Shown piece by piece: positions 29,431-45,951 of a stretch of DNA of 64,000 nt; position 1 is the stretch's first letter; every line of letters starts with the position of its first letter. The stretch lies in NCBI GenBank assembly GCA_043797815.1, contig JAZDPG010000107.1, positions 5,252-69,251 on the forward strand, written 5' to 3'. Source of the stretch: Bacteroidota bacterium. Its GTDB lineage: Bacteria; Bacteroidota; Bacteroidia; Bacteroidales; GCA-2748055. The notes under the pieces were generated by a model, which saw only the letters and a list, made by a program, of their open reading frames with translations, did no database searches and was not told the DNA's origin. Position numbers and translations under genes: made by a program.

Positions 29431-29560
29431 CCCTGCCAATAAAATGAACCTGGGCCCGATCCATACCAACAACATACAACTGAACTCAAACGCTGCCAAC
29501 AACATACAACACCAATAAAATCCTGCCAACCACATGAAACTGAACCACGCCCCTACAGGC
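29431..29560 (+). repeat. Degenerate 30-bp-period repeat running into the Fic start codon
   Basis: ccTGCCAAy-mAmAT units at 29431, 29461, 29491, 29521. Confidence 0.6.
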
Positions 29561-30493
29561 AAGATTTTAAACCTGACCGCAACTGTCTCAGAACAGCTTG
29601 GGGAATTGATCGCATTGCAGCCGGAAAATGTGCATCCCGAATCCAGGAAACAGGCCAGAATTGACTCCATTCATGCCACGATGCAGCTGGAAGGAAAGCT
29701 CCTCTCCCGTGAAAAGACTGCCGAAGCCGTGGGAGGATTTTATGTGGATGGACCCAGGACCAGGTTGCTGGAGGTTTCCAACCTGATCAATGTTTATAAC
29801 GGGCTGTACAAGACCAACCCCCGGAACCAGGATTCATTGCTGTCCACCCAGAAAAAAATGGCCATCGGGCTGGAAGACGATGCGGGCCAGTACAGGACCA
29901 CTGAATTATGGATCTTCAGGGGCCGGAATATCATCGGCATGGCACCATCGCCCGGTGAGATCGCCGGTTTCATGAATGAACTTTTTGATTTACTCAGCAA
30001 GAAGGACGAACATATCTTTATTAAAGCCTGCACAGCGCACTTCATCCTGGAATCAATCCAACCGTTCTCCGGTTTTAACGGAATGATGGGCAGGCTCTGG
30101 CAGACCCTGCTGCTGATGAAGGTATATCCCATGTTTGAATTCCTTCCTTACGAAAAACAGATCCTTCAAAATCCCAAAGCGTACCACAGGGCCCTGGCGG
30201 GAAGTGAGGCCGCAGGCCATCCGGCTGAATTCATCGAATATATGTTACAGGTGATCACCGGAGCATTAAAAGAATACGATGGTTGGAGAAAAAAATCCCT
30301 GTCACCGTCCGATCGTATCCTCTATTTTCATAAACTTGGCATGCCGTCTTTTACACGGAGGGACTACATGAAGGTGAACAGGAACATCTCAACCGCAACT
30401 GCAAGCCGCGACCTGGAAAAGGGAGTGGATGCAGGTTTATTCCGGAAGAGCGGAATCGGGAACGCAACCATCTACACATGGCAAAAACCGTAA
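29534..30493 (+). CDS. Fic-family protein with degenerate active site and C-terminal HTH
   Basis: SIHATMQLEG; motif reads QPFSGFNGMMGR instead of HPFxDGNGRxxR; ISTATASRDL HTH. Confidence 0.8.
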   Translation: MKLNHAPTGKILNLTATVSEQLGELIALQPENVHPESRKQARIDSIHATMQLEGKLLSREKTAEAVGGFYVDGPRTRLLEVSNLINVYNGLYKTNPRNQDSLLSTQKKMAIGLEDDAGQYRTTELWIFRGRNIIGMAPSPGEIAGFMNELFDLLSKKDEHIFIKACTAHFILESIQPFSGFNGMMGRLWQTLLLMKVYPMFEFLPYEKQILQNPKAYHRALAGSEAAGHPAEFIEYMLQVITGALKEYDGWRKKSLSPSDRILYFHKLGMPSFTRRDYMKVNRNISTATASRDLEKGVDAGLFRKSGIGNATIYTWQKP

Positions 30494-30852
30494 GAATCGA
30501 CAAATACCTCTGGGCGGTAAGGGTGTACAAAACCCGTTCCCTGGCAGCCGACGCCTGCAAAAAGGGAAAGGTAAGCGTCGATGAGATGCCGGCCAAAGCC
30601 TCCCGTACTGTCACCGCAGGCGATCTGATCAGGGTGAAAAAGATGCCGGTTGTTTACTCCTACCGGGTCAAAGACCCCATCGAAAAACGGGTGGGTGCCA
30701 AAATCGTGGACAATTACGTGGAAAACATCACCCCGGAGGAGGAGCTGCAAAAACTCAGGATGGAGGACGATTTCTTCATCCAGCGCGACCGCGGAACCGG
30801 CCGCCCCACCAAAAAAGAGAGGCGGTTGCTGGACGATATTACCGACAATTAA
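30478..30852 (+). CDS. hslR: Ribosome-associated heat shock protein Hsp15 (S4 domain)
   Basis: RIDKYLWAVRVYKTRS, GTGRPTKKERR. Confidence 0.92.
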   Translation: MAKTVRIDKYLWAVRVYKTRSLAADACKKGKVSVDEMPAKASRTVTAGDLIRVKKMPVVYSYRVKDPIEKRVGAKIVDNYVENITPEEELQKLRMEDDFFIQRDRGTGRPTKKERRLLDDITDN

Positions 30853-30892
30853 TTCATCAACCCCTGGAAATTACCAGGAAACTCCAAGAAGA

Positions 30893-31330
30893 ATGACCCA
30901 CGTGTTTATTGACCCGGATGTTTTACTGGATGTGGTAACCGGAAGGCTCCCTTTCTCGAAAGAAGCTGGTGCGCTTTTTACACTAATTGAGAAAAATCAA
31001 TTGAAAGGATATGCCTCAGCGCTGAGTTTCAGTAATATTTATTATGTACTGCGTAAGCATGCGTCACATTCCAGGGTGATAAAAAGCCTGAATGAATTAT
31101 CAGACCTTGTTGACATACTGCAAGTGGATCAGTCCATTGTGAAGACCGCGCTTCAATCGGGGTTTGGTGATTTTGAGGATGCCCTCCGATGTTATGCAGC
31201 CCAGTCTAACCCTGAGATTAAAATGATCATTACAAGAAATACCAAAGACTTTAAGAAGTCTGACTTACCCGCGATGACCCCGAATACCTTTCTGAAAACG
31301 GTTGCCCTATTGGGCCAGTCCGCCGACTGA
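30893..31330 (+). CDS. PIN-domain (VapC-like) protein with no adjacent antitoxin
   Basis: Start re-called at ATG 30893; VFIDPDVLLD, DFEDA, ITRNTKDF; low GC. Confidence 0.8.
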   Translation: MTHVFIDPDVLLDVVTGRLPFSKEAGALFTLIEKNQLKGYASALSFSNIYYVLRKHASHSRVIKSLNELSDLVDILQVDQSIVKTALQSGFGDFEDALRCYAAQSNPEIKMIITRNTKDFKKSDLPAMTPNTFLKTVALLGQSAD

Positions 31331-34131: not shown

Positions 34132-35307
34132 ATGATACCAAGGCTTCTTACCGATAGTTTGCTTGAATCCATCCGTTTTTTCCCGGTCACAGGGATTGTT
34201 GGTCCCCGGCAGGTTGGAAAAACAACCCTTGCAAAACATCTTATGAAAAAAACCGGGAAGGATTCTGTGTATGTGGACCTGGAGAATCCTAAGGATCTGG
34301 CCATGTTGAGTGATCCGGTATTGTTCTTTGAGCAGAACCAGGAGCGTTGTGTTGTTCTTGATGAAATCCAGAGAAAACCCGAGCTTTTTCCTATTCTTCG
34401 TTCCATGGTTGATCTGAACCGCACCAGTGCACGTTTCATCATCCTTGGATCGGCCTCTCCGGATTTGATCAGAGACTCATCCGAATCTCTGGCCGGGCGT
34501 ATTGTTTATGAAGAACTTACGCCCTTTAACCTGGAAGAGGTAATCCACATGAAGGATATCTTTTTTCACTGGTTCAACGGGGGTTTTCCGGATTCCTTTC
34601 TTGCACCCGGTGATTCTGTCAGGAAAAAGTGGTTGTCAGGATTCGTTCAAACCTATATTGAACGGGACCTTCCCTTGCTCGGATTAAATATCGATCGCAC
34701 CATCATCAGAAGGCTGTGGACCATGCTGGCACATCTGCATGGTAATGTGCTGAACATGAACAACCTTTCACGCTCCCTTGAAGTGAGTTCAACAAGCATC
34801 AAGAAATACATTGCATTTCTTGAGGAGGCATTCCTGGTGAGACAATTGCAGCCCTTCCATGTGAACATCAAAAAGAGAATTGTCAAATCTCCCAAGGTGT
34901 ATATCAGAGATTCAGGGATTCTTCATCATTTGCTCCATATTCCGGATTATAAGTCACTTATGTCGAACCCTGTTGTAGGGGCTTCCTGGGAAGGATATGC
35001 CATTGAACAAATTGTTCAGCGGACCGGCCCTGAAACCGGTGTCTACTTCTTCAGAACCCATGAGGGGGCCGAATGTGATCTGGTGCTTGCGAAGGGCAAC
35101 ATACCAACCATGGCCATCGAAATTAAATTTACCTCCACTCCAAGGCTTTCACGGGGGCTGACCATGGCTTTCGGGGATGTGAATGCCCCGGAGAATTTCA
35201 TTATTACACCTGCAACGGAGGACTATCTGATCGGGACTCATACCCGGGTTTGCTGCCTGGAACTTTTTCTGCAAAAATATCTACACGCAAGTTCAACCAT
35301 CGCATGA
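34132..35307 (+). CDS. AAA_14 ATPase with DUF4143 domain
   Basis: GPRQVGKTT, LDEIQ, LGSAS, ESLAGR, GGFP, KSPKVY..DSG, ECDLV..AIEIK. Confidence 0.88.
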   Translation: MIPRLLTDSLLESIRFFPVTGIVGPRQVGKTTLAKHLMKKTGKDSVYVDLENPKDLAMLSDPVLFFEQNQERCVVLDEIQRKPELFPILRSMVDLNRTSARFIILGSASPDLIRDSSESLAGRIVYEELTPFNLEEVIHMKDIFFHWFNGGFPDSFLAPGDSVRKKWLSGFVQTYIERDLPLLGLNIDRTIIRRLWTMLAHLHGNVLNMNNLSRSLEVSSTSIKKYIAFLEEAFLVRQLQPFHVNIKKRIVKSPKVYIRDSGILHHLLHIPDYKSLMSNPVVGASWEGYAIEQIVQRTGPETGVYFFRTHEGAECDLVLAKGNIPTMAIEIKFTSTPRLSRGLTMAFGDVNAPENFIITPATEDYLIGTHTRVCCLELFLQKYLHASSTIA

Positions 35308-37091
35308 ATATCGCCCGCTTTCAAAACCGCCTCCAAATCCGTATCCTGCACCTGGTCAGGAACATCAACCAGCGGCGGCTGATCCTGGGGCTTGCCCTGG
35401 TGATCGGGTTTATGTCGGGGATTGCGGCCATCTTGCTCAAGAACCTCACCCATTTCGTGGAGGACAAATCGAAGTCGTGGCTGCTGGGCGACCACAGCTC
35501 CGAGCTCTCCTTTTTCCTGCCCCTGGCGGGGATCGGGCTTACGGTGGCGTTTGTGAAATACCTGCTGAAAGAGGACATCGGGCACGGGGTGAGCAAGATT
35601 CTCTTCTCCATCTCCAAACGGAAAGGGCACCTGAAACCGCACAACACCTGGTCGTCCATGGTGGCCAGCTCCATTACCGTGGGACTGGGCGGATCGGTGG
35701 GGCTTGAGGCGCCCATCGTGCTCACGGGCGCATCCATCGGCTCCAACCTGGGCCGCAAACTCAGGCTCAACTACAAAACCATCGTACTGCTGGTAGGGTG
35801 CGGCGCCGCCGGTGCCATCGCCGGGATCTTCAAGGCCCCCATTGCCGCCATGATCTTTGCCTTCGAGGTGCTCATGCTCGATCTGACCACCTGGTCCATC
35901 GTCCCCCTGCTGCTGGCCTCGGTCACCGCCACCACGGTCTCCTATTTCCTGCTGGGCGAACAGGTTGTATTCTCCTTTACCATCAGCGAACCCTTTGTGC
36001 TGAACAACCTCCCCTTTTACATCCTGCTGGGCGTACTGAGCGGACTGATCTCCCTTTACTTCACCCGCATGAACACCTATGTGGAATCGGCCATGGGCAA
36101 GATGAAAAACACCCTGGTGCGGACCCTTACCAGCGGACTGCTGCTGAGCCTGCTGATCTTTTTAATGCCCCACCTGTTCGGGGAGGGGTACATGACCCTG
36201 AAAACCTTGCTTACGGGACACTCCCTGGAGCTTTTCGACGGCACCCTTTTTGAGAACCTGGTGGGAAACCAGGGGATCTACATGATCCTTTTCTTCCTGC
36301 TGCTGATCCTGTTCAAGGTGATCGCCATGGCCATCACCACGGGCGGCGGCGGGGTTGGCGGGATCTTCGCCCCTGCCCTGTTCGTGGGGGGGATGACCGG
36401 TGCCACCCTGAGCCGGGCCATCAACCTGATTGCCCCGGAGAAAGTCTCCGAAAACAACTTCGCCCTGGTGGGCATGGCGGGTGTCATGGCCGGGGTGATG
36501 CATGCCCCCCTGACCGCCATCTTCCTCATTGCCGAGATCACCGGGGGCTACGCCCTGTTCATCCCCCTGATCATCACCGCCACCCTTTCGTACGTGACCA
36601 TCCTGGGATTTGAGCGGCAGAGCATCTACACCATGCGGCTGGCCAAGCGGGGCGAACTGATGACCCACGACAAGGACAAGAACGTGCTGAGCATCCTCTC
36701 GGTGCAGGAGGTGCTCGAAACCGACTTCAAAAAAGTGAATGCCGACGGCAAGCTGGCCGACCTGATCAAAGCCATCTCCAAGTCGAAACGGAACATCTTC
36801 CCCGTCCTGAACGAAGAAAAAGAGCTGGAGGGGATCATCAGCCTGGACGACATCCGCGACATCGTGTTCAACACCGAGCTGTACCAGAAAGTGACCGTCC
36901 GCGAACTGATGCAGACCCCGCCCGCCGTGATCGACCGCGACGAAAAGATGGGAAAGGTCCTGGAGCTTTTCGAAACCACCGGCGCCTGGAACCTCCCGGT
37001 CACCGAAAACGGCAAATACAAAGGCTTCATCTCCCGCTCCAAGATCTTCTCCTCCTACCGCAAGCTGCTCAGGGAGTTTTCGGATGACTAG
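35304..37091 (+). CDS. ClC chloride channel/antiporter with CBS domains
   Basis: GHGV, GSVGLEAP, GIFKAP, GGIFAP, tandem CBS; start re-called at 35304. Confidence 0.92.
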   Translation: MNIARFQNRLQIRILHLVRNINQRRLILGLALVIGFMSGIAAILLKNLTHFVEDKSKSWLLGDHSSELSFFLPLAGIGLTVAFVKYLLKEDIGHGVSKILFSISKRKGHLKPHNTWSSMVASSITVGLGGSVGLEAPIVLTGASIGSNLGRKLRLNYKTIVLLVGCGAAGAIAGIFKAPIAAMIFAFEVLMLDLTTWSIVPLLLASVTATTVSYFLLGEQVVFSFTISEPFVLNNLPFYILLGVLSGLISLYFTRMNTYVESAMGKMKNTLVRTLTSGLLLSLLIFLMPHLFGEGYMTLKTLLTGHSLELFDGTLFENLVGNQGIYMILFFLLLILFKVIAMAITTGGGGVGGIFAPALFVGGMTGATLSRAINLIAPEKVSENNFALVGMAGVMAGVMHAPLTAIFLIAEITGGYALFIPLIITATLSYVTILGFERQSIYTMRLAKRGELMTHDKDKNVLSILSVQEVLETDFKKVNADGKLADLIKAISKSKRNIFPVLNEEKELEGIISLDDIRDIVFNTELYQKVTVRELMQTPPAVIDRDEKMGKVLELFETTGAWNLPVTENGKYKGFISRSKIFSSYRKLLREFSDD

Positions 37092-37848
37092 TCCGGGTGT
37101 ATCTCTTCCGGGTTAATTCGAGTAACCCGTTTATAATGGTGAGCGGATGAACAGGGTTTCCGGCCATATACAGGTCAATTTTATATTTCGAAAGAAAACT
37201 CCGGTCAATGGCCGGGCTGCCGGCAAAGATCCCCCCGCTGATGGCATCGGTTCCTGCCAGGACAATGATTTTCGGGTCGGGCACGGCACGGTAGCAACGT
37301 TCGAGCGGTTCAGCCATATTCCCTGAAACGGGGCCGGTGATCAAAATACCATCGGCGTGGCGGGGCGAAGCAACAAAATCAATACCGAAGCGGCTCATGT
37401 CAAACTGTACATTGTTGCTTGCCGTTAATTCCCATTCACAACTGTTATCACCACCGGCAGATACATGCCTTAATTTTAGCGATTGTCCAAAGGTTCTTCT
37501 TATTTCTCCCCTGATTTTTTCAGGGTCGAGCAGGAGCGGCTTATCGACACCTTCGTAAATCAGGAGCCGTTCCCTGTCATTGGTGGATAACTTATAATCC
37601 TTTGTGAAAGACACCTTGGCAGGAAACTGAACGGCACATTCGCCACAGAAAGTGCATTTGCCAAGGTCGATACAAAAAGGGGAAGCCGTAATTGCACCGG
37701 TCGGGCAAAGCTCCACCGCCGCTTTTTCATCCACCTGAATTGTTGAAATTACCGGGCGGCCGCGAAATATCCCGGGTACTTCCGCTTTCGTTACATCCGG
37801 AATGAACTGTTTTCCCTGGTGCCATACTATTTTTACATTGTCAAACAT
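37069..37848 (-). CDS. Ehr/hydrogenase-4-like small subunit: ferredoxin fused to NuoB/HyfI domain, with Cys ligands substituted
   Basis: CPTGAI, CTFCGEC; SPRHADGILITGP; GGDNSCE, GTDAISGG, AGNPVHP. Confidence 0.85.
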   Translation of the reverse strand: MFDNVKIVWHQGKQFIPDVTKAEVPGIFRGRPVISTIQVDEKAAVELCPTGAITASPFCIDLGKCTFCGECAVQFPAKVSFTKDYKLSTNDRERLLIYEGVDKPLLLDPEKIRGEIRRTFGQSLKLRHVSAGGDNSCEWELTASNNVQFDMSRFGIDFVASPRHADGILITGPVSGNMAEPLERCYRAVPDPKIIVLAGTDAISGGIFAGSPAIDRSFLSKYKIDLYMAGNPVHPLTIINGLLELTRKRYTRTSHPKTP

Positions 37849-37866
37849 GGAGGTTTATTTTAGGGT

Positions 37867-39384
37867 TTACAGGTCGTGACCGCAATAAGAAAGGTTAAAA
37901 CTTTTATTGCACACCGGGAAATCCGATATTTCGTTGTTCCGCACAGCCTGCGCCAGGGCCATCCAGTTGTGGTGCGAGGGATCCTTGATTTTATAAGCCT
38001 TCAGTTTTCCATTTTCATCCGTCATGGCACAATGGCATATTTCGCCACGCCAGCCTTCAACCAGCGCTAAGGTGAATTTCTCTTTTCCCGCGGCAAACCC
38101 GGTGTTTCCAGACCCGGTGTTCCCGGGTTTACCAAAGGGGGGAATGTTTTCGAGCAGGTGGCGGCAATAACCTATAGACTGGGAAATTTCCTCACGGCGG
38201 ATGAGTGTCCTGGACAAAACATCGCCCTGGTGCATGATAACCGGGTTGTGGCGGATGGTCGCCTGATACATGTTAAAAGGATGCGATTTCCGGATGTCCC
38301 TTTCCAGGCCGCTCATCCGGGCAGACATCCCAACGGTTCCAATTTCCAGTACCTGCTGGTAATTCACAATTCCCGTACGTTCCAGTCTTGCCAAAACACT
38401 TGGAAGCTGAAAAAATTTCCCGGACATTTCGTTAAAGTCACGTTCATAGGCATCAAAGATATCCAACAGCCTTGCGGACAATTCTTCCGAAAAAGGATCA
38501 TTTATTTTGCCGGGCCTGATCAGCCCTTTCGCCAGGCGGTTTCCGCCCCACTCCTGGAAAAAATTAACGATGGGTGTACGCAGCCTGCCATACACCGAAT
38601 TCCCCAGCTGGTAGGCAATATCTGCACAGATGGCAGCCAGGTCGCCGGTATGGATGGCTATTCGTTCCAGCTCCAGGGCCAGGGTGCGTGAAAAATGAAG
38701 CGATTCACCCGTTTCTGTTTCACAAAGGCTTTCCCAGAGGTTTGCAAAAGCAGTGGCATGTCCGACGGTTGTGTCGCCGGCAATATTTTCGGCAAGGGTA
38801 GCCCGTTGCAACAGCCTCTCTTTTTGAAGAAACAACTGTTCAATTCCCCGGTGCTGGTATCCCAGCTGGATTTCGAGATGAAGGATCTGTTCCCCGTTGC
38901 ATATAAAACGGAAATGGCCGGGTTCAATAATACCGGCATGAATGGGGCCGACACCCACTTCATGCAACTCCTCACTTTCTGCCCGGTAAAAAGGGTAACC
39001 GGCCATTTGTTGTTGCTTATCCCACCTGTTGTGGCTGTACCGCACGGGCTTTAACCAGGGATGATCGGTATATTCAATACCAAAATTTTCGGCAATTTCG
39101 CGTTCAAATTTCTCAAAATTATAATTCCGGAATGTCAGTGATGGCAACTTCCCATCCCTGCTGACAAGCGAAGAATTTATATGTATTTCATGCGTGGTAT
39201 CATCAGCAATACAACAATACAGTCTGATCTGCCGGTGTTCCTTCACCCCGAAATAATTCACACAATGGCGTTCCGGATGTCCTGTTAACAAAGCTGCATT
39301 GTCATCAAGGAATTCCCGGTAGTTCAGAACAGGGATCTCTTTGATATCAGCGGTCTGATTGTTATGTATGGTACAATATCGCAT
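37867..39384 (-). CDS. Ehr/HyfG-like large subunit (NuoC+NuoD fusion) lacking NiFe-binding CxxC motifs
   Basis: Start re-called at ATG 39384; FEREIAE, VGPIHAGIIEPGHFRF, GYQHRG, ENIAGDT, VEGWRGE, SFNLSYCGHDL. Confidence 0.88.
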   Translation of the reverse strand: MRYCTIHNNQTADIKEIPVLNYREFLDDNAALLTGHPERHCVNYFGVKEHRQIRLYCCIADDTTHEIHINSSLVSRDGKLPSLTFRNYNFEKFEREIAENFGIEYTDHPWLKPVRYSHNRWDKQQQMAGYPFYRAESEELHEVGVGPIHAGIIEPGHFRFICNGEQILHLEIQLGYQHRGIEQLFLQKERLLQRATLAENIAGDTTVGHATAFANLWESLCETETGESLHFSRTLALELERIAIHTGDLAAICADIAYQLGNSVYGRLRTPIVNFFQEWGGNRLAKGLIRPGKINDPFSEELSARLLDIFDAYERDFNEMSGKFFQLPSVLARLERTGIVNYQQVLEIGTVGMSARMSGLERDIRKSHPFNMYQATIRHNPVIMHQGDVLSRTLIRREEISQSIGYCRHLLENIPPFGKPGNTGSGNTGFAAGKEKFTLALVEGWRGEICHCAMTDENGKLKAYKIKDPSHHNWMALAQAVRNNEISDFPVCNKSFNLSYCGHDL

Positions 39385-39427
39385 GGCTGTTATTGGATAA
39401 GATATCGCATGGCTGTTATTGGATAAG
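39376..39427. repeat. Exact 26-bp tandem duplication of the hyfF-stop/hyfG-start junction
   Basis: ATATCGCATGGCTGTTATTGGATAAG at 39376 and 39402. Confidence 0.95.
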
Positions 39428-40840
39428 TTTCGCGGCTTCCTCAATGAGCTGAACAAAGTCGATTGGCGGATGGTATGCAAAGTATACGGCAAAGGCCAGC
39501 AAAGCGTACTGCGAAACAGAATCCCACGGGCTGATGCGGGGCACGCGCTTTTCATCCAACCCCACCGGCGGTGTGAACAGCAGTTTGAATATATTGGAAC
39601 CAAAACCCCAGATGATCGTGGTCAGAAGGATCAGTACGACCGCCAGGAGGATCAGCCTGCGGGCTTCAAAAAGAGACTGAAAAAGAAGAAATTCGCTGAT
39701 AAACAAACCGGAAGGCGGCATGGCGGTGGCGGATATAAAACCCAGCAGCAGGACCAGGGCCCCGGCCCTGTTGTATTTGAAATAATGTCCCGTATCGTAA
39801 ATGCTTTTGCTCTGGTAGACCCTGTACACCTGGTTAAACTGAAAAAACAGGGCGGGTTTAACAAAGGTATGCAGAACAATGTGGAGGATCGCAGCGTAAA
39901 TGCCCACACCGCCGACTGCCAGCCCCAGGATCACGAGGCCCATATGTTCAATACTGGAATAGGCAAACATCCGCTTGATGTTTTTGATGTGGGTCATGTA
40001 GACAGTTGCCACAAAAATGGAGAGTATGGCGGATACGATCATCACCGTGGATGCCCAGTGGAGCAATCCGGTTCTGCTGAGAATGGCATACACCCTGAAA
40101 ATGCCGACAAACCCCATGTTCATAAGGATGCTGGAAAGCAGGGCTCCGGCAGGTGCCGGGGCCTTGTCCTTGGCATCGATACCGGCGGTATACATGGGGA
40201 CAAGTCCCATTTTAGCCGTGAAACCGGCAAAAATGAACAGGAAAGCCAGCTTAAGCCAGAAAGGGTCGAGAGCGGCTGCATGGTCCATGAGCACATCAAA
40301 GGAAAAAGTATCAATGGCCGCCTTCTTCATGGCAAGGCCGAGAAAAAGGATCCCTATGTATATAAAGGTGATGCTGATCGCACAAATAAATACGTATTTC
40401 CAGACTCCTTCCAGCGCCCTGATATTCCGGTGATGGTAAATAAGCACCGATGCACTCAGGGTGGTAACTTCCACAAAAATCCACATGACTGCAAGGTTGT
40501 TGGACACGTAAGCAATGCATATGGCTGAAATCAGGACAACCAGCGCAGCAAAAAACAGTCCTCTCGAGCGGGGGGGTTCATCATGGGTAACCATGTACCG
40601 GTAGGCATGGAAAAAAGCCGGAAGGCTCACGATGCAAAGGGCGAACAACATCAGAACCGACAATGGATCGGATTTGAAAAACTGATGATCAGCAACGTTG
40701 ATGTGGCTGAATTCATAAACCGCAAAGAGGCATAACATCAGGGCATAAAGCACAACCAGACCATAATGGATGACATTGTTTTTATTCAGGTAAAGCAAAA
40801 TGCCCGTTACAAGGGTGCCGGCTAGAAATATCAGGGTCAT
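39416..40840 (-). CDS. HyfF-like proton-translocating membrane subunit
   Basis: WIFVEVTT, WKY, KMGLVP, KRMFAYSSIEHMG, PPSGLFISE. Confidence 0.88.
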   Translation of the reverse strand: MTLIFLAGTLVTGILLYLNKNNVIHYGLVVLYALMLCLFAVYEFSHINVADHQFFKSDPLSVLMLFALCIVSLPAFFHAYRYMVTHDEPPRSRGLFFAALVVLISAICIAYVSNNLAVMWIFVEVTTLSASVLIYHHRNIRALEGVWKYVFICAISITFIYIGILFLGLAMKKAAIDTFSFDVLMDHAAALDPFWLKLAFLFIFAGFTAKMGLVPMYTAGIDAKDKAPAPAGALLSSILMNMGFVGIFRVYAILSRTGLLHWASTVMIVSAILSIFVATVYMTHIKNIKRMFAYSSIEHMGLVILGLAVGGVGIYAAILHIVLHTFVKPALFFQFNQVYRVYQSKSIYDTGHYFKYNRAGALVLLLGFISATAMPPSGLFISEFLLFQSLFEARRLILLAVVLILLTTIIWGFGSNIFKLLFTPPVGLDEKRVPRISPWDSVSQYALLAFAVYFAYHPPIDFVQLIEEAAKLIQ

Positions 40841-40845
40841 GAGAA

Positions 40846-41475
40846 TCAGTCTTTCAGGTTCCGTAATTGTGAAACATCCGGGTCCTGCAGTACATCCCCG
40901 ATTTTATTGAAGAAAATGCCCAGGATCAGCACACTGGCAAAAATATCGAGCATGATCCCAAGGTTCACCAGCATGGGCATCTCGTTTGCCACAGCCAGGG
41001 AAAGGATAAAAACACCATTTTCAATAACCAGGTAGCCGATCACATGGGTGATAATTTTTTTCCTGGAAACGATCAGGTATAACCCGGTAAAAAGATTGGA
41101 AAGTGAGGCCACAAAAATGGTCTTATCCAGATGGGGGTCTTTGATCTGGCTCGATAAGACAATGGTTGAGACAATAATCAGGGTGACGATCAGAAGCGAA
41201 ACAAAATTGGGCAGGTAGGGCTCTGCTTCGCGGGTAATATGATTCCGACTTATAACTCTTTTCAGAAAAACAGGAACTGCCAGAGCCTTAAAAACAATGG
41301 TTTCCAGCAGGATGAAAGCCAGGTTTACCAAGTTGATCTCCGTTAAAGTAAGAAGCATCACACCAAAAAGAATAAACCCCTGGAAAATCAGGATATTCAG
41401 GTAGGTGAATATCCTGTTCGCGATGCTCATGAAGAGGAGGCTGATGGCCAAAATGATCAATAAAATATCGCTCAT
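40846..41475 (-). CDS. HyfE-like membrane subunit
   Basis: GYLVIENG, MPMLVNLGIMLD; start probably ATG 41475. Confidence 0.82.
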   Translation of the reverse strand: MSDILLIILAISLLFMSIANRIFTYLNILIFQGFILFGVMLLTLTEINLVNLAFILLETIVFKALAVPVFLKRVISRNHITREAEPYLPNFVSLLIVTLIIVSTIVLSSQIKDPHLDKTIFVASLSNLFTGLYLIVSRKKIITHVIGYLVIENGVFILSLAVANEMPMLVNLGIMLDIFASVLILGIFFNKIGDVLQDPDVSQLRNLKD

Positions 41476-41485
41476 GTTTACTTGT

Positions 41486-42391
41486 TTAATTGAATTTTCC
41501 AAGGACTAGCAATACCCCAAAAAAGATCAGCAGTGAAACCGATGTCAGGATAAAGATAAACTGGGGATTATGTCCCATCCTGAACCTGGCCATGAATGAC
41601 TCGAACAGGCCTATGGTAACAGCAAAAATGACCTGTACTGCAAAAAATACAGGTACCGACCAATGCAGGGGAAGCCCGCCAATAAAAAAATTGGCGATGA
41701 TCGCCCCGTACATGACAAATTTCAAAGGTGCGGCGTACATGATCATTCCCAAATCAAAGCCGCTGTTGTCCAGCACCATCACTTCATGGATCATCGTCAG
41801 TTCCAGGTGTGTTTTGGGGTCGTCCACCGGCATGCGGCTGTTCTCTACCATGGCAACAAACAAGAGCACAAAAGCTGCCAGTCCGCCGATCAGGTAGGAG
41901 ATATGGCTGCCAAAATGCAGTGAATTGAAAATGTCATAAAAAGAAGAGTGACCCGTGAACAGGGCAAGTGAGCCCATCACAATAAAAAAAGCCGGTTCAA
42001 CGAGCATGGAAAACAAAGCTTCGCGGCTGGCTCCCATGCCTTCGAAACTGCTTCCGGTATCCAGAGAGGCAATGATCATCACAAACTTGCCAAGCCCCAG
42101 GATGTAGGCAAACATGACAAAATCCCCTTCAAAGGAGATGAGCCCCGGCAAATTTCCGTGGGGCAGCATCAGTACGGCCATCAGGATGGATGCAAGGTAT
42201 ACTGAAGGCGCTATCCTGAAGATAAAACTAGTTGTCGTGCTAAACACCGAGCCCTTCCGCAGAAGCCTGATGATATCTTTGACGGGCTGCAAAACACCCG
42301 GCCCCTTACGCCCGGAAGCGAGGCTTTTCGTGCGCACCACAATGCCCATAAAAAAAATACTTGCCGTCAGGATGATTATGACACTCACCAT
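41486..42391 (-). CDS. HyfC/HycD (NuoH-like) membrane subunit
   Basis: GRKGPGVLQP, GMGASRE, ENSRMPVDDP.THLELTMIHE. Confidence 0.9.
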   Translation of the reverse strand: MVSVIIILTASIFFMGIVVRTKSLASGRKGPGVLQPVKDIIRLLRKGSVFSTTTSFIFRIAPSVYLASILMAVLMLPHGNLPGLISFEGDFVMFAYILGLGKFVMIIASLDTGSSFEGMGASREALFSMLVEPAFFIVMGSLALFTGHSSFYDIFNSLHFGSHISYLIGGLAAFVLLFVAMVENSRMPVDDPKTHLELTMIHEVMVLDNSGFDLGMIMYAAPLKFVMYGAIIANFFIGGLPLHWSVPVFFAVQVIFAVTIGLFESFMARFRMGHNPQFIFILTSVSLLIFFGVLLVLGKFN

Positions 42392-42398
42392 ATTCCAG

Positions 42399-44420
42399 CT
42401 ATTTAATAAAACTGATAAAATCCATAAGCTTTGAAATAATCACAGGAACCACAAATACCAAAGTGATGAAAATGAATCCGTAAAGAATATAATACTGGAT
42501 GTTGCCATTCTGAAGGAATACAAACCGGTTCAGCAGTCTTTTAAACCGGCGAACAGGTTTATCAATAAGCCAGTATTCCACTTTGTCATATGGATGGGTG
42601 GACTGACTGATTTCGACGGGATAAAGGGTGGCTGACAGGCTTTTTTCCTTCTTCATCAAAAGAAGAGGTTCGGCCAGCTTCCTGTAGGTCCGTATGAACG
42701 ATGATGCGGTATACTGTGCTTTGGGGATGCTGCCGGTATAACCGCAGCCCCAGGTTTCATATTCGCTTGCTGGTTTATTTCCGGTCATCTTTTTCCTTGT
42801 GAAAAAGATGGCGAGGACCATTACAATCAAACCCAGTGAAACCAACCCGGCAAGCGAGATGCTGCGAAAAGCGGAGGTCATTCCGTTTACCGAATCAGCA
42901 GGATTGCCTTGACCGAACAGGGAGGCGACCTGCAGAAGCGGTTCCGAAAACAGGAAGGGCATGACACCAATCACCAGGATCGCCAGGGCAATGAAATAGA
43001 GAGGGACGATGTTGAGCGGTTTTTCGATTTTTTCCATGCCCGCGCTGCCGCGGCTGTTTCCCAGGAAAACCACTCCAAAGGCCTTGGTAAAACAAATGAG
43101 CGCCAGTCCGCCAACCAGGACCAGTCCCACCATCGAGAAAAGCATGGAGAGCGTAAAGAGGAAATTGTTTGTTCCCAACCCCTCAAAAAAGCCTTTGAAA
43201 ATGAAAAATTCCGAGACAAAGCCGTTCAAAGGGGGCAGGCCGCAAATGGCCAGTGAGGCAACCAGAAACAGATACCCGGTATGCGGAACCTTTTTAATCA
43301 TACCTCCCAGGGCTTCGATATTCATCGTATGGGTGGCCTGATAAACGTTTCCTGCAGCAAAGAACAGCAAGGATTTAAACAGGGAGTGGTTGAGTGTATG
43401 CAGCAGCGCGCCTCCGAAACCGAGCCCTATGAGCACCGGGTTATCCGTGCCCATTCCAAGGCATCCCAGTCCCATGCCCATCCCGATAATACCGATATTC
43501 TCGATGGAGTGGTAAGCGAGCAGGCGTTTCAGGTTGTGCTGCACAATGGCGAGCATGACCCCGTAAACCCCCGTAATGACGGAAACGGCAAGCACAAAAT
43601 AGCCGATGAAGGTATAATCCGTATGAATGAGGGTGATCATGCGCAGGATCCCGAAAATCCCAATCTTGATAATCACCCCCGACATCACTCCCGAAATGTG
43701 CGCCGGTGCAGCCGGATGGGCCAGCGGCAGCCAGGTATGAAAAGGGACAAAACCTGCTTTGACGGCGAAGCCGGTAAAGAAAACGATAAACAGACCGATG
43801 GCTGCCCGGGGATGGCTGGCTGTAAGGGAAGCAATAGCCGAAAAATCAAAGGAGCCGGTTTTAACCTTCACCCAGATAAACCCGATGGTCAAAAGAAGAA
43901 TGCCGATATGCGACTGGATTAAAAAGTTGATACCGGCCTTCAGCGTCTCTTTCTTCTCCCACTCAAAAACAATGACAATAAACGAGCTGATGGCCATGAT
44001 CTCCCATACCGTCAGGAACATGATGGAGTTCTGAACAAGGCATAAATCGATCAGTGAGGTGAAATTCAGGATATAAAAAACAATATGCACCTTCAATTCG
44101 GCCCGTTTTTCCCGGTATTTCTTCATGTAGCCAATCCCGTAGAACGAGCTGATCAGGAACGAAAAGCTGATGATGAGCATGAACCAGGCCGACAGATAAT
44201 CAAACCTGATTGCCGTTTTACCCATGGGCCCGGAGCTGTTCAGGTAAAATTCACCCGCCCCTTTGGCAAAAATGAAAACAGCCAGAACAGAAACCATGAT
44301 GACCTGCAACACATGGAAAGCTGCCGAAATCCGGACAGGAAGCCTTTTCCCGGATAAAACAACCAGGAATACAGCCACAACAGCTACGATGTTGAACCCT
44401 TCAAAAAGCAGTTTTTCCAT
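42399..44420 (-). CDS. HyfB/HycC-like antiporter-type membrane subunit
   Basis: WEIM, KAGFVPFHTWLP.AHP, KRLLAYHSIENIG, GLPPLNGF, WGCGY; start probably ATG 44420. Confidence 0.9.
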   Translation of the reverse strand: MEKLLFEGFNIVAVVAVFLVVLSGKRLPVRISAAFHVLQVIMVSVLAVFIFAKGAGEFYLNSSGPMGKTAIRFDYLSAWFMLIISFSFLISSFYGIGYMKKYREKRAELKVHIVFYILNFTSLIDLCLVQNSIMFLTVWEIMAISSFIVIVFEWEKKETLKAGINFLIQSHIGILLLTIGFIWVKVKTGSFDFSAIASLTASHPRAAIGLFIVFFTGFAVKAGFVPFHTWLPLAHPAAPAHISGVMSGVIIKIGIFGILRMITLIHTDYTFIGYFVLAVSVITGVYGVMLAIVQHNLKRLLAYHSIENIGIIGMGMGLGCLGMGTDNPVLIGLGFGGALLHTLNHSLFKSLLFFAAGNVYQATHTMNIEALGGMIKKVPHTGYLFLVASLAICGLPPLNGFVSEFFIFKGFFEGLGTNNFLFTLSMLFSMVGLVLVGGLALICFTKAFGVVFLGNSRGSAGMEKIEKPLNIVPLYFIALAILVIGVMPFLFSEPLLQVASLFGQGNPADSVNGMTSAFRSISLAGLVSLGLIVMVLAIFFTRKKMTGNKPASEYETWGCGYTGSIPKAQYTASSFIRTYRKLAEPLLLMKKEKSLSATLYPVEISQSTHPYDKVEYWLIDKPVRRFKRLLNRFVFLQNGNIQYYILYGFIFITLVFVVPVIISKLMDFISFIK

Positions 44421-44554
44421 TACATCACGATTGAATAGATACCATTGCAAAGTAAGCGTAAAATTTGCTCCAGCTGTGGGAGAGTGCAAAAGAAGCTGCT
44501 GAAAAAAATCCAAAGCTCAAAAAAGGAAAAAGCGGACGAAAACGCAAGAAACCG

Positions 44555-44602
44555 TTTTAACCCCTGGATTTATGAAGAAAAGTGTAATTTTAACCCTTGG
44601 AT
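44555..44602 (+). promoter_or_regulatory. Direct repeat TTTTAACCCyTGGAT x2 upstream of the AAA ATPase
   Basis: Copies at 44555 and 44588, 33 bp apart. Confidence 0.55.
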
Positions 44603-44613
44603 AATTTATTATT

Positions 44614-45951
44614 ATGTATTTAACAAGAACCGTAGACAAGTTCTTACTGGAATGGAAAAATGATTTGAGAAGGAAGCCCTTACTGCTTCGGGGTGCCAGG
44701 CAGGTTGGAAAATCATCCAGTGTAAGGGAACTCTCAAGAAAGTTTGACTATTTTCTGGAGGTAAATTTTGAAGAAAACAAGGATATTCATGGTTTTTTTA
44801 CCGGCAACTTATCTCCGGAAAACATTTGTAAAAACTTATCGCTCGTCTATGATATACCTGTTATTCCAGGAAAAACACTTGTTTTTTTCGACGAGATACA
44901 ATCGTGTATTCCTGCCATATCATCAATAAGATTTTTTTATGAGAGAATTCCGGATCTGCATCTGATTTCAGCTGGTTCACTATTAGAATTTGCACTTGAA
45001 GAACTTCCTTCATTTGGCGTAGGTCGTATTCGATCTTTGTTCATGTACCCTATGTCTTTCAACGAATTTCTTATGGCAAATGAACTTCAACCACTATTAA
45101 CAGCCATTGAGGAGGCAAATGTGAATTTTCCGCTTTCAGAACCTGTTCACAAAAAGATTATCTCCTTATTAAAAGAGTTTCTCATTATCGGAGGCATGCC
45201 TGAAGTTGTAGCAAAATATGTAGAAAACGGTGATCTCCGGGAATGTCAGTCTGTTTTAGATGATTTAATCATATCCCTTCAGGCTGATTTTACAAAATAT
45301 AAACAAAGAATTCCTTCAATTCGAGTCCGCAAAGTTTTTGAATCCATTGTGTATCAGTCAGGAAAGAAATTTATCTATGCAAATGCTGTGGATGATGCAA
45401 ATTCTCAACAGATACATGAAGTTGTGGAAATATTGATTCTTGCTCATCTGGTGATACCGGTAACTCACACCTCAGCGAACGGTTTGCCGTTGGGTGCAGA
45501 AAGCAACAGCAAAAAGCGCAAACTTATGTTGCTTGATACCGGTGTAACGCAGCGAATACTTAATTTGCAACTGTCGGATATTTTACTTTCGAATGATCTT
45601 GAGGTGGTCAACAAGGGCAGCATTGCAGAACAATATGCAGGTCTGGAGTTAATTAAAAATACTTCACCTTTTCAGCCTCAGCAACTATTCTATTGGCACA
45701 GAGAAGAGAGAAACAGTAATGCCGAAGTGGATTATATCATTCAGATGGGTAATAAGATCATTCCTCTTGAAGTAAAGTCAGGGATCAGAGGTAAAATGCA
45801 CAGCTTGCGGCTCTTTCTCAGTGAGAAAAAAACCAGTTACGGCATCAGGACTTCCCTTGAGAAATACGCGAAATACGATAACATCCTGGTATTGCCTCTC
45901 TATGCACTTTCAGATCTGGAAAATGAAGACAAACCGTTACAATCAGATTGA
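44614..45951 (+). CDS. AAA_14 ATPase with DUF4143 domain
   Basis: GARQVGKS, FFDEIQ, AGSLL, VGR, GGMPE, DTG, AEVDY..PLEVKS; low GC. Confidence 0.88.
   Translation: MYLTRTVDKFLLEWKNDLRRKPLLLRGARQVGKSSSVRELSRKFDYFLEVNFEENKDIHGFFTGNLSPENICKNLSLVYDIPVIPGKTLVFFDEIQSCIPAISSIRFFYERIPDLHLISAGSLLEFALEELPSFGVGRIRSLFMYPMSFNEFLMANELQPLLTAIEEANVNFPLSEPVHKKIISLLKEFLIIGGMPEVVAKYVENGDLRECQSVLDDLIISLQADFTKYKQRIPSIRVRKVFESIVYQSGKKFIYANAVDDANSQQIHEVVEILILAHLVIPVTHTSANGLPLGAESNSKKRKLMLLDTGVTQRILNLQLSDILLSNDLEVVNKGSIAEQYAGLELIKNTSPFQPQQLFYWHREERNSNAEVDYIIQMGNKIIPLEVKSGIRGKMHSLRLFLSEKKTSYGIRTSLEKYAKYDNILVLPLYALSDLENEDKPLQSD

Follow-up and report, generated by a model that had tools for sequence, protein, structure and literature searches.

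A stretch of 64,000 nucleotides (nt) from a Bacteroidota bacterium of the order Bacteroidales (NCBI GenBank assembly GCA_043797815.1, contig JAZDPG010000107.1, positions 5,252 to 69,251; hereafter the window) contains six adjacent minus-strand genes, the sequences of which indicate an Ehr-type (energy-converting / Ech-hydrogenase-related) six-subunit membrane complex. In the small subunit of this complex three of the four cysteine ligands of the proximal [4Fe-4S] cluster, the equivalent of cluster N2 of complex I, are replaced by Asp, Asp and Asn, and the replacement is shared by a clade of Bacteroidota in which the subunits are strongly conserved. Comparison of this subunit and its partners with related loci suggests that this Ehr variant probably moves ions without passing electrons. 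The original prediction, made from the sequence of the window, had proposed either a different cofactor at the altered site or redox-uncoupled ion translocation, and we lean towards the second of these options.

The proximal-cluster site of the small subunit

The Pfam family Oxidored_q6 matched residues 136-245 of the small subunit (E 7e-19), and the best NCBIfam NuoB-family model scored 78.1 bits against a cut-off of 116, below the level at which the protein would be classed as an N2 carrier. Among chains of known structure the best phmmer match was MbhJ (6cfw_J, E 1.3e-22), followed by HycG (7z0s_G, E 6.4e-19), and Nqo6 (2fug_6) matched at E 7.4e-16. In the alignments to these chains residues D134, D201 and N231 stand opposite cluster cysteines and C137 stands opposite the fourth, so that D134, C137, D201 and N231 are found where a group 4 hydrogenase has the CxxC...C...C ligands of its proximal [4Fe-4S] cluster. 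In the Nqo6 alignment S136, C137, D201 and N231 face C45, C46, C111 and C140, which we take to be the numbering of the Nqo6 N2 ligands. A hydrogenase small subunit encoded elsewhere in the same genome (described below) gave a gap-free BLASTP alignment with 31% identity over residues 120-249, with D/C/D/N opposite C/C/C/C. The strings GGDNSCE, GTDAISGG and AGNPVHP, on which the original prediction was built, are present at amino acids (aa) 132, 199 and 229, and its placing of the ligand positions agrees with the solved chains and with the in-genome hydrogenase. The motifs that it had called typical are those of Cys-bearing relatives: 70 rows of a 151-row alignment (the query and 150 representatives at 50% clustering) read C-C-C-C, with GSCNGCE or GGCNGCE, GACAISGG and PGCPPHP.

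A scan of one genome per species yielded 80 related loci, at which the four ligand positions (134, 137, 201 and 231, given in this order as positions 1 to 4) fall into two groups. Fifty loci are N2-less, with D-C-D-N in 47 and D-S-D-N, D-A-D-N and D-C-E-N in one each; all are labelled Bacteroidota and they come from five NCBI classes. The remaining 30 are C-C-C-C and N2-bearing, 28 of them from other phyla or unplaced records and two labelled Bacteroidota. Columns were compared between 51 N2-less and 30 N2-bearing rows. Position 134 is Asp in 51/51 N2-less rows (GAT 23, GAC 28) and Cys in 30/30 N2-bearing rows; position 201 is Asp in 50 of the N2-less rows and Glu in one; and position 231 is Asn in all 51 (AAC 20, AAT 31). 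Both synonymous codons are used at 134, 201 and 231 across these rows, which are 48-94% identical. Position 137 is Cys in 49 N2-less rows, Ser in one (locus L038) and Ala in one (locus L072), and in more distant members of the clade in the 151-row alignment it is Thr, Asn, Val or Ile. The only other Cys of the NuoB-like part, C185, is kept in 40/51 N2-less rows; with no further conserved Cys in this domain there is none to replace the lost ligands. The original prediction would have fallen had other cysteines occupied the ligand positions, and the sequence offers no conserved candidate for such a role. An AlphaFold2 model of the small subunit had a mean predicted local distance difference test score (pLDDT) of 92.7 and a predicted template modelling score (pTM) of 0.89.

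In the ferredoxin half, the second CxxCxxCxxxCP motif of NdhI/NuoI has its counterpart in residues 58-95, where F75 takes the place of the last Cys. In place of two complete motifs, motif 1 keeps C48-P49 and motif 2 keeps CxxCxxC (C65, C68 and C71). These residues are retained in every one of the 81 aligned rows, N2-less and N2-bearing, and a fifth cysteine, C59, is kept in only 4/51 N2-less rows. In two-cluster ferredoxins the CxxCxxC of one motif and the Cys-Pro of the other form one site, and by this cross-ligation rule C48-P49 and the motif 2 cysteines would make one composite [4Fe-4S] site. The capacity for a single cluster claimed for this half at the outset is thus upheld by the conservation of the four motif cysteines and not of C59. 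Because forms with two clusters keep this same cluster together with N2, we infer that it is the middle one of an ancestral three, adjacent to the lost N2-type site.

Graded loss of cofactors

The related loci differ in how many clusters they can hold. Fourteen have a full two-cluster ferredoxin together with N2-type ligands and include Acidobacteriota, Nitrospirota, Lentisphaerota, Pseudomonadota and Bacillota. Another 16, from six Cloacimonadota, five Melainabacteria, three Spirochaetota, one Ignavibacteriota and one Bacteroidota-labelled record, keep N2-type ligands but have a degenerate first ferredoxin motif. The 50 N2-less Bacteroidota loci are left with the motif 2 ferredoxin cluster only.

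In the small subunit, the only columns fixed to different residues in the two groups were 134, 201 and 231, that is, the ligand columns themselves. Beside them, position 136 is Ser in 51/51 N2-less rows (Gly, Ala or Ser in N2-bearing rows) and position 200 is Thr in 46/51 (Ala, Ser or Thr). Switched columns numbered three in the large subunit, one in the NuoH-like subunit and none in the HyfB-like subunit. When columns at least 90% conserved in N2-bearing rows were considered, the same residue was found in N2-less rows in 90/101 columns of the large subunit, 52/58 of the NuoH-like subunit and 60/82 of the small subunit. Given this retention and the conserved residues of the membrane subunits described below, both the large-subunit pocket and the membrane machinery are preserved irrespective of the arrival of electrons. 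Large-subunit residues H22 and Q241, fixed in N2-less Bacteroidota, were considered as compensating changes and rejected; they are treated as lineage marks, because an independent lineage with the pattern D-E-D-S has Arg and Ala there.

Distribution and selection

The 120 closest database proteins were 73-100% identical to the small subunit. Ligand residues were scored in them by regular expression, with Asp at position 1 in at least 115, Asp at position 3 in 118 and Asn at position 4 in 108, the remainder being unmatched; a few of these proteins carry Asn or Val in place of C137. Named carriers among them are Bacteroidales, Salinivirgaceae, Labilibaculum and Mariniphaga. The gene was present in 19/401 sampled genomes of the phylum, in 52/201 of the order (50/180 of those of good quality) and in 48/167 sampled genera of the order, and no copy was found in the only further genome of the genus that was sampled. 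The operon was also observed in records labelled Arcticibacter and Gillisia, which are aerobic genera. The records name cultured carriers (Labilibaculum antarcticum and Arcticibacter eurypsychrophilus MJ9-5), with which its function could be tested at the bench. The two Bacteroidota-labelled N2-bearing loci (L029, by its L2 motif, and L085, by its L1 motif; both motifs of the large subunit) match Ehr loci outside Bacteroidota, and their operons could reflect transfer or mis-binning.

All six operon genes are under strong purifying selection. Median ratios of nonsynonymous to synonymous substitution (dN/dS, NG86 method) for close pairs were 0.062 for the small subunit, 0.074 for the large subunit and 0.050 for the NuoH-like subunit, rough values since dS was near saturation, and 58 of the 259 small-subunit positions are invariant over the 51 N2-less rows. 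These data indicate that D/D/N marks a conserved clade under strong purifying selection (51 rows, dN/dS about 0.06), and they exclude strain-private substitutions under relaxed selection, the case that the original prediction had named as its undoing.

Large subunit and membrane arm

The best match of the large subunit among solved structures was HycE (7z0s_E, E 3.8e-33), and it also aligned to MbhL. Its L1 motif reads A-G-D-T where hydrogenases have C-G-x-C, and its L2 motif reads N-L-S-Y-C-G in place of D-P-C-x-x-C. In the HycE alignment Ala and Thr stand at the L1 cysteines and Ser and Gly at those of L2, so that the four cysteines of a group 4 [NiFe]-hydrogenase are absent. Both NiFe motifs, RxCGxCxxxH and DPCxxCxx(H/R), are gone from the large subunit, as is the case for Ehr proteins, and this absence of NiFe ligands, together with the gene content and order, assigns the operon to the Ehr type. 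At the 72 related loci where all four NiFe Cys columns were readable none had more than one Cys and nine had one; the NiFe site is thus lacking in every related locus, with or without N2-type ligands. In a set of 70 rows drawn from many phyla, conservation of at least 93% was seen at 99 of the 487 aligned large-subunit positions, among them D186 (between the former L1 cysteines), C144 and, at the C-terminus, Y482 and D486, which suggests that a polar pocket is maintained where the NiFe site used to be. A Cys/His ligand swap at L1 (Ala with His against Cys with Tyr) was considered and rejected, as Tyr also occurs with Ala and with Val.

Conservation in the membrane subunits was computed over 61-65 rows, again N2-less and N2-bearing. 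Residues at least 93% conserved include E171, K252, K283, H372, K380 and E435 of the HyfB-like subunit and E124, K210, K289, H324 and K328 of the HyfF-like subunit; E67, E161 and D186 of the HyfE-like subunit are conserved, and 22 charged or titratable positions of the NuoH-like subunit pass the 93% level. The Glu, Lys and His residues together with the acidic residues of the NuoH-like subunit are those by which an ion-translocating membrane arm of the complex I family is recognized, and such an arm is predicted here. Searches of the six operon proteins with Pfam and NCBIfam gave no match to an MrpE/F/G-like subunit. The complex also falls outside the Mrp-type antiporter class, since its antiporter-like subunits are accompanied by a full peripheral module.

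Parallel loss in other lineages

Besides its 70 C-C-C-C rows the 151-row alignment holds many different Cys-less ligand patterns. More distant members of the Bacteroidota-type clade have D-T-D-N, D-N-D-H and D-V-E-A. Small Cys-less lineages have T-D-E-S, D-A-A-D and D-S-S-D, the Chloroflexota forms being D-A-A-D and S-A-E-S. At least two of the four ligand positions are acidic in 22 of 25 Cys-less representative rows, and a change from Cys to Asp takes two base changes. A tree of 111 rows requires six changes to account for the Cys-less state, of which well-supported branches force at least four. Approximately unbiased (AU) tests, from which 18 partial-pattern rows that look like broken gene calls and two very long branches were left out, rejected a single clade for all 23 Cys-less rows (p 0.0134) and for the two large Cys-less clades alone (p 0.0176); the groups were chosen after the tree had been seen, and the ligand columns were kept in, which favours joining.

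The second large clade, from Acidimicrobiales/Actinomycetota where named, has D-E-D-S in 111 of 120 proteins, and 100 of the 120 have no Cys at all in the NuoB-like part. All of its 80 metagenome loci are D-[ED]-[DE]-[SA] and keep four ferredoxin cysteines. Where the large subunit lay on the fetched DNA it had no NiFe Cys and an L1 motif of E-R-x-E-G-x-A, and the gene order in this clade is B-(C)-D-L-S-A. Cys-bearing sisters of the clade keep their N2 ligands, with a full ferredoxin in P0267 and a one-cluster ferredoxin in P0197. The sisters of both lineages are therefore graded from three to two to one cluster, and the same order of loss was followed twice. On these sequences the cluster-less end state appears to have arisen in parallel in the two lineages.

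Operon structure and genomic context

Features of the operon and its surroundings are listed in Table 1. The HyfB-like open reading frame (ORF) was listed as 44513-42399 (704 aa), but its probable start is an internal ATG at 44420; likewise the large-subunit ORF was listed as 39603-37867 (578 aa), and its probable start at 39384 corresponds to M74 of the longer ORF. None of the six genes is disrupted in the window; the small-subunit gene comes last, and most of the 80 related loci have the same six-gene order. In many related Bacteroidales operons a tandem HyfB-like pair brings the number of genes to seven, whereas the window has one HyfB-like gene. NCBIfam scores of all six proteins were below the curated cut-offs, and the names returned for the membrane subunits were hydrogenase-4 B, E and F. 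Leaders are short, and the octamer TTACTTTG, which resembles what we take to be the consensus of the Bacteroidota -7 promoter element, was also found upstream of 10/33 N2-less loci. There was no Rfam match in 36500-45200 at E values up to 0.1. A search of sequencing runs listed no RNA run and one DNA run with a small share of matching words, which does not bear on expression either way.

Table 1. Positions of the operon, its ligand codons and nearby genes in the window.
Feature	Coordinates	Strand	Remarks
Small subunit, EhrS-like, 259 aa	37069..37848	-	ferredoxin/NuoI/HycF-like half fused to NuoB/HycG-like domain
Large subunit, EhrL-like, NuoC-like + NuoD/HycE-like	37867..39384	-	Pfam, NCBIfam
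HyfF/NuoN-like antiporter-like subunit, EhrD-like, 474 aa	39416..40840	-	Pfam, NCBIfam
HyfE-like membrane subunit, EhrC-like, 218 aa, start uncertain	40846..41502	-	Pfam, NCBIfam
NuoH/HyfC-like membrane subunit, EhrB-like, 301 aa	41486..42391	-	Pfam, NCBIfam
HyfB/NuoL-like antiporter-like subunit, EhrA-like	42399..44420	-	Pfam, NCBIfam
Promoter-like octamer TTACTTTG	44448..44455	-	ends 28 nt ahead of ATG at 44420
Codon D134 (GAT), first Cys of hydrogenase-type CxxC	37447..37449	-	
Codon C137, sole ligand Cys kept	37438..37440	-	
Codon D201 (GAT), third ligand Cys	37246..37248	-	
Codon N231 (AAC), fourth ligand Cys	37156..37158	-	
Four Cys of retained ferredoxin-type cluster	37636..37707	-	C48 37705-37707, C65 37654-37656, C68 37645-37647, C71 37636-37638
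ClC chloride-channel gene with CBS domains	35250-37091	+	converges on small-subunit gene, 23-base overlap 37069-37091
AAA_14/DUF4143 ATPase genes	34132-35307 and 44614-45951	+	near operon
Fic/DOC-family gene, S4-domain gene and PIN-domain ORF in a row	29534-31330	+	overlapping frames

Outside the window, at about 15000-33200 of contig C110, the genome carries a cluster for a true group 4 membrane-bound [NiFe]-hydrogenase. Its large subunit of 397 aa has both Cys motifs (ERICGICSTSH ... DPCYCC) and its small subunit is C-C-C-C. A NuoH-like subunit and several ORFs taken as Mrp/antiporter-like belong to the same cluster, which is adjoined by HypD and further ORFs taken as other hyp genes. Since the same genome encodes a normal group 4 NiFe hydrogenase with hyp genes, the cluster-less state is specific to the Ehr complex. 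Three unannotated ORFs of 165, 274 and 331 aa lie upstream in the C110 cluster. Within the genome, PF01058 and PF00346 each match this cluster and the Ehr operon and nothing else; a canonical complex I was thus not found, although the genome is 99.75% complete. The genome also has five FeFe-hydrogenase-like matches and two Rnf/Nqr-type loci.

When all ORFs flanking the 80 related loci were clustered, no flanking gene family was common to more than six of them. The commonest families were PAS histidine kinase, M49 peptidase, GFO/IDH/MocA oxidoreductase, DoxX, ABC ATPase, gamma-glutamyltranspeptidase and EPSP synthase; judged by family, these are unrelated housekeeping genes and none is a dedicated redox partner. 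Between the window and the other sampled genome of the genus (G523), synteny at 91% identity stops exactly at the end of the ClC gene, and the DNA beyond that point has no counterpart near the window. The ATPase gene at 34132-35307 is missing from the otherwise collinear contig C58 of G523, and a 70%-identical copy is present on another G523 contig.

Proposed function and alternative explanations

As read from these comparisons, the complex would be a redox-independent, or at most redox-gated, proton or cation translocator, and not a hydrogenase or a ferredoxin-driven pump; we give this reading about an even chance. Because three of the four proximal ligands are replaced and the domain has no other conserved Cys, the electron wire from any donor to the large-subunit pocket would be cut. 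The lone cluster would now have a mainly structural role in the ferredoxin fold where the subunits meet, and possibly that of a redox sensor. A [4Fe-4S]2+ cluster with four thiolates has a charge of -2; the two carboxylates, with N231, S136 and T200, may fill the cavity of the lost cluster and mimic its net negative charge, and the -2 charge so restored would keep the junction of the small, large and NuoH-like subunits native-like. The membrane arm would then translocate protons or cations with no redox turnover, and the redox state of the lone cluster would at most gate the flow.

Several points weigh against this proposal. We infer both the ion translocation and the lack of redox turnover from sequence, and the sequences point to no driving force for translocation; in the absence of MrpE/F/G-like subunits an Mrp-type Na+/H+ exchange path is not evident. 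The invariance of the lone [4Fe-4S] site (81/81 rows, and 80/80 in the second lineage) fits a working redox centre as well as a structural one. The pocket is rich in oxygen (Asp, Ser, Thr, Asp and Asn, with a mostly kept Cys), which fits a specific cation or metal site, and the pattern of Asp at position 1, Asp or Glu at position 3 and Asn, Ser or Asp at position 4 recurs in both large lineages. Two buried carboxylates without a counter-ion are unusual. For the parallel origin, the choice of AU groups after the tree was seen counts on the same side.

If the pocket of D134, D201 and N231 with S136, T200 and C137 bound a mononuclear redox metal, the wire would be repaired and the complex would be a ferredoxin-driven pump with an unknown acceptor. 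The four ligand positions converge on one point in NuoB/HycG-type structures, the replacements are of ligand type and invariant, their neighbours became Ser and Thr, and conservation is strict both in the remaining cluster and in the large-subunit pocket; a mononuclear centre has also been raised as a possible occupant of an emptied N2 site, in an excerpt of PMC8042128. Even so, the wider clade can do without C137, the sole soft ligand (D-T-D-N, D-N-D-H and D-V-E-A), position 4 can be Ala and position 2 Val or Ile, the domain has no Cys in 100/120 proteins of the second lineage, and no acceptor-related gene is linked to the operon in the flanks of the 80 loci. All-oxygen mononuclear sites are not known to relay electrons in this family, and we regard such a repair as improbable. 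Only slightly better placed, and in our view still unlikely, is a non-redox site for a cation (Na+, K+, Mg2+ or Ca2+) or a proton relay, with the lone cluster sensing redox state or oxygen and gating ion flow through the affinity or pKa of the pocket. The oxygen-rich ligands, the convergence of Asp1, Asp-or-Glu3 and a polar residue at position 4 in two lineages, the conserved ion-translocating residues and the retention in both lineages of precisely the cluster next to the pocket all suit it, and the occurrence of the operon in records of the aerobic genera Arcticibacter and Gillisia would suit an oxygen or redox sensor. On the other side, ion binding has no direct support, a structural role explains retention of the cluster equally well, and the acidic positions shift in the small lineages (T-D-E-S, D-A-A-D and D-S-S-D), which fits a need for charge better than a fixed geometry. 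A broader version, to which we attach a similarly low probability, makes the acidic pocket a functional fixed-charge or cation/proton-binding device, convergent in at least two phyla and tuned electrostatically by the adjacent cluster.

Two further explanations have very little in their favour. Other proteins are known in which a [4Fe-4S] cluster has a single Asp ligand, so the site might still hold an Fe-S cluster through Asp, Asn and one Cys; but that one Cys is lost in parts of the clade, the second lineage is mostly Cys-free in this domain, and a cubane with two Asp, one Asn and no more than one Cys as ligands is, as far as we know, without precedent, which makes this highly improbable. 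Least credible of all is that the operon is a decaying, functionless remnant. Its distribution is patchy, with the gene not found in the other sampled genome of the genus and synteny with that genome breaking at the operon edge, and some loci from long-read metagenome-assembled genomes have fragmented genes; against this stand dN/dS values of about 0.05-0.07, the 58/259 positions invariant over 51 rows, the six intact genes of the window and the 48/167 sampled genera of the order that carry the gene.

In complex I, in membrane hydrogenases and in their relatives, ion pumping is held to be powered by a redox reaction where the peripheral arm joins the membrane arm. Here a phylum-level clade keeps the whole machine under strong selection yet removed the last electron-transfer step, so that either these complexes never needed that path, with consequences for the role of Ehr complexes in general, or the membrane arm is coupled to something other than electron transfer. 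Were the functional-pocket reading true, these would form a class of redox-gated, not redox-driven, hydrogenase-derived ion translocators, and a natural experiment on communication between peripheral and membrane arms in machines of the complex I family. Database records call these genes 'NADH-quinone oxidoreductase subunit B' or 'Ni,Fe-hydrogenase III small subunit', names that metabolic reconstructions of Bacteroidota should not follow.

Comparison with known systems

Ehr clusters are described in excerpts of PMC6349859, PMC7304191, PMC4378227 and PMC7894505 as group 4 hydrogenase-like, without Ni/Fe ligands and of unknown function. In Geobacter sulfurreducens the genes EhrA-1/A-2/B/C/D/L/S are GSU0739-0745, the function of which had never been investigated according to the text available from PMC7894505 and PMC8691401. 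Loss of the small-subunit cluster, or a structure or assay of an Ehr complex, found no mention in the literature searched, which took in neither supplements nor the founding work of Coppi 2005 and of Marreiros et al. 2013. The Geobacter complex has the same NuoL-, NuoH- and HyfE-like subunits, second antiporter-like subunit, and large and small subunits, with a large subunit free of NiFe motifs; the Bacteroidota fused ferredoxin-small subunit has in addition lost proximal ligands and one ferredoxin cluster, a comparison in which the state of Geobacter EhrS was not included. The original prediction saw here its strongest candidate for a new system, which goes too far: the Ehr family already has a name, 52/201 sampled genomes of the order carry the gene and all relatives compared are already without the NiFe site. 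The Ehr family is known, and the cluster-less small subunit makes this a variant of an established complex rather than a system of its own. What the present analysis adds is the comparison showing replacement of the ligands only, the parallel lineage with the same order of loss, the in-genome hydrogenase as control and the distribution as an accessory operon.

Towards the E. coli formate hydrogenlyase/hydrogenase-4 (7Z0S) the likeness lies in HycE and HycG, which are among the best solved matches, and in the HycF-like ferredoxin part; the window complex differs in having no NiFe site, no proximal cluster and one ferredoxin cluster instead of two, and it has the equivalents of HyfH and HyfI of hydrogenase-4 fused in one protein. 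With the Pyrococcus furiosus complexes MBH (6CFW) and MBS (6U8Y) it shares a peripheral module set on NuoH-like and antiporter-like subunits. MBH and MBS keep three Fe-S clusters for the reduction of protons or polysulfide and carry an Mrp-like Na+ module, no subunit of which was found among the proteins of the window operon. The Mrp Na+/H+ antiporter is redox-independent, is built from antiporter-like subunits of the same kind and offers a working model for a complex without a wire; unlike Mrp, which has no NuoH-, NuoD- or NuoB-like module, the window complex keeps such a module under strong selection.

In the Yarrowia lipolytica complex I variant NDUFS2-R121M/K cluster N2 is gone, the enzyme is otherwise intact and quinone-reductase activity is absent, as reported in an excerpt of PMC8042128. 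A complex I without N2 can still assemble, which by analogy supports the mechanism proposed for the Ehr variant. The laboratory mutant is dead, has its Cys ligands in place and is changed at a second-sphere Arg, whereas the Bacteroidota loss is natural, ancient and fixed, with the ligands replaced by conserved polar residues. Nearest in state are Ehr complexes of the Acidimicrobiales type, of Chloroflexota and of a CPR clade (Jaffe et al. 2020, PMC7304191), which reach the same end point: NiFe ligands and proximal cluster are both missing, and the former ligand positions hold acidic residues. The Acidimicrobiales-type clade also has the single ferredoxin cluster of the window protein, and it differs in gene order, in the residues at positions 2 and 4 and, by the tree tests, in its separate origin.

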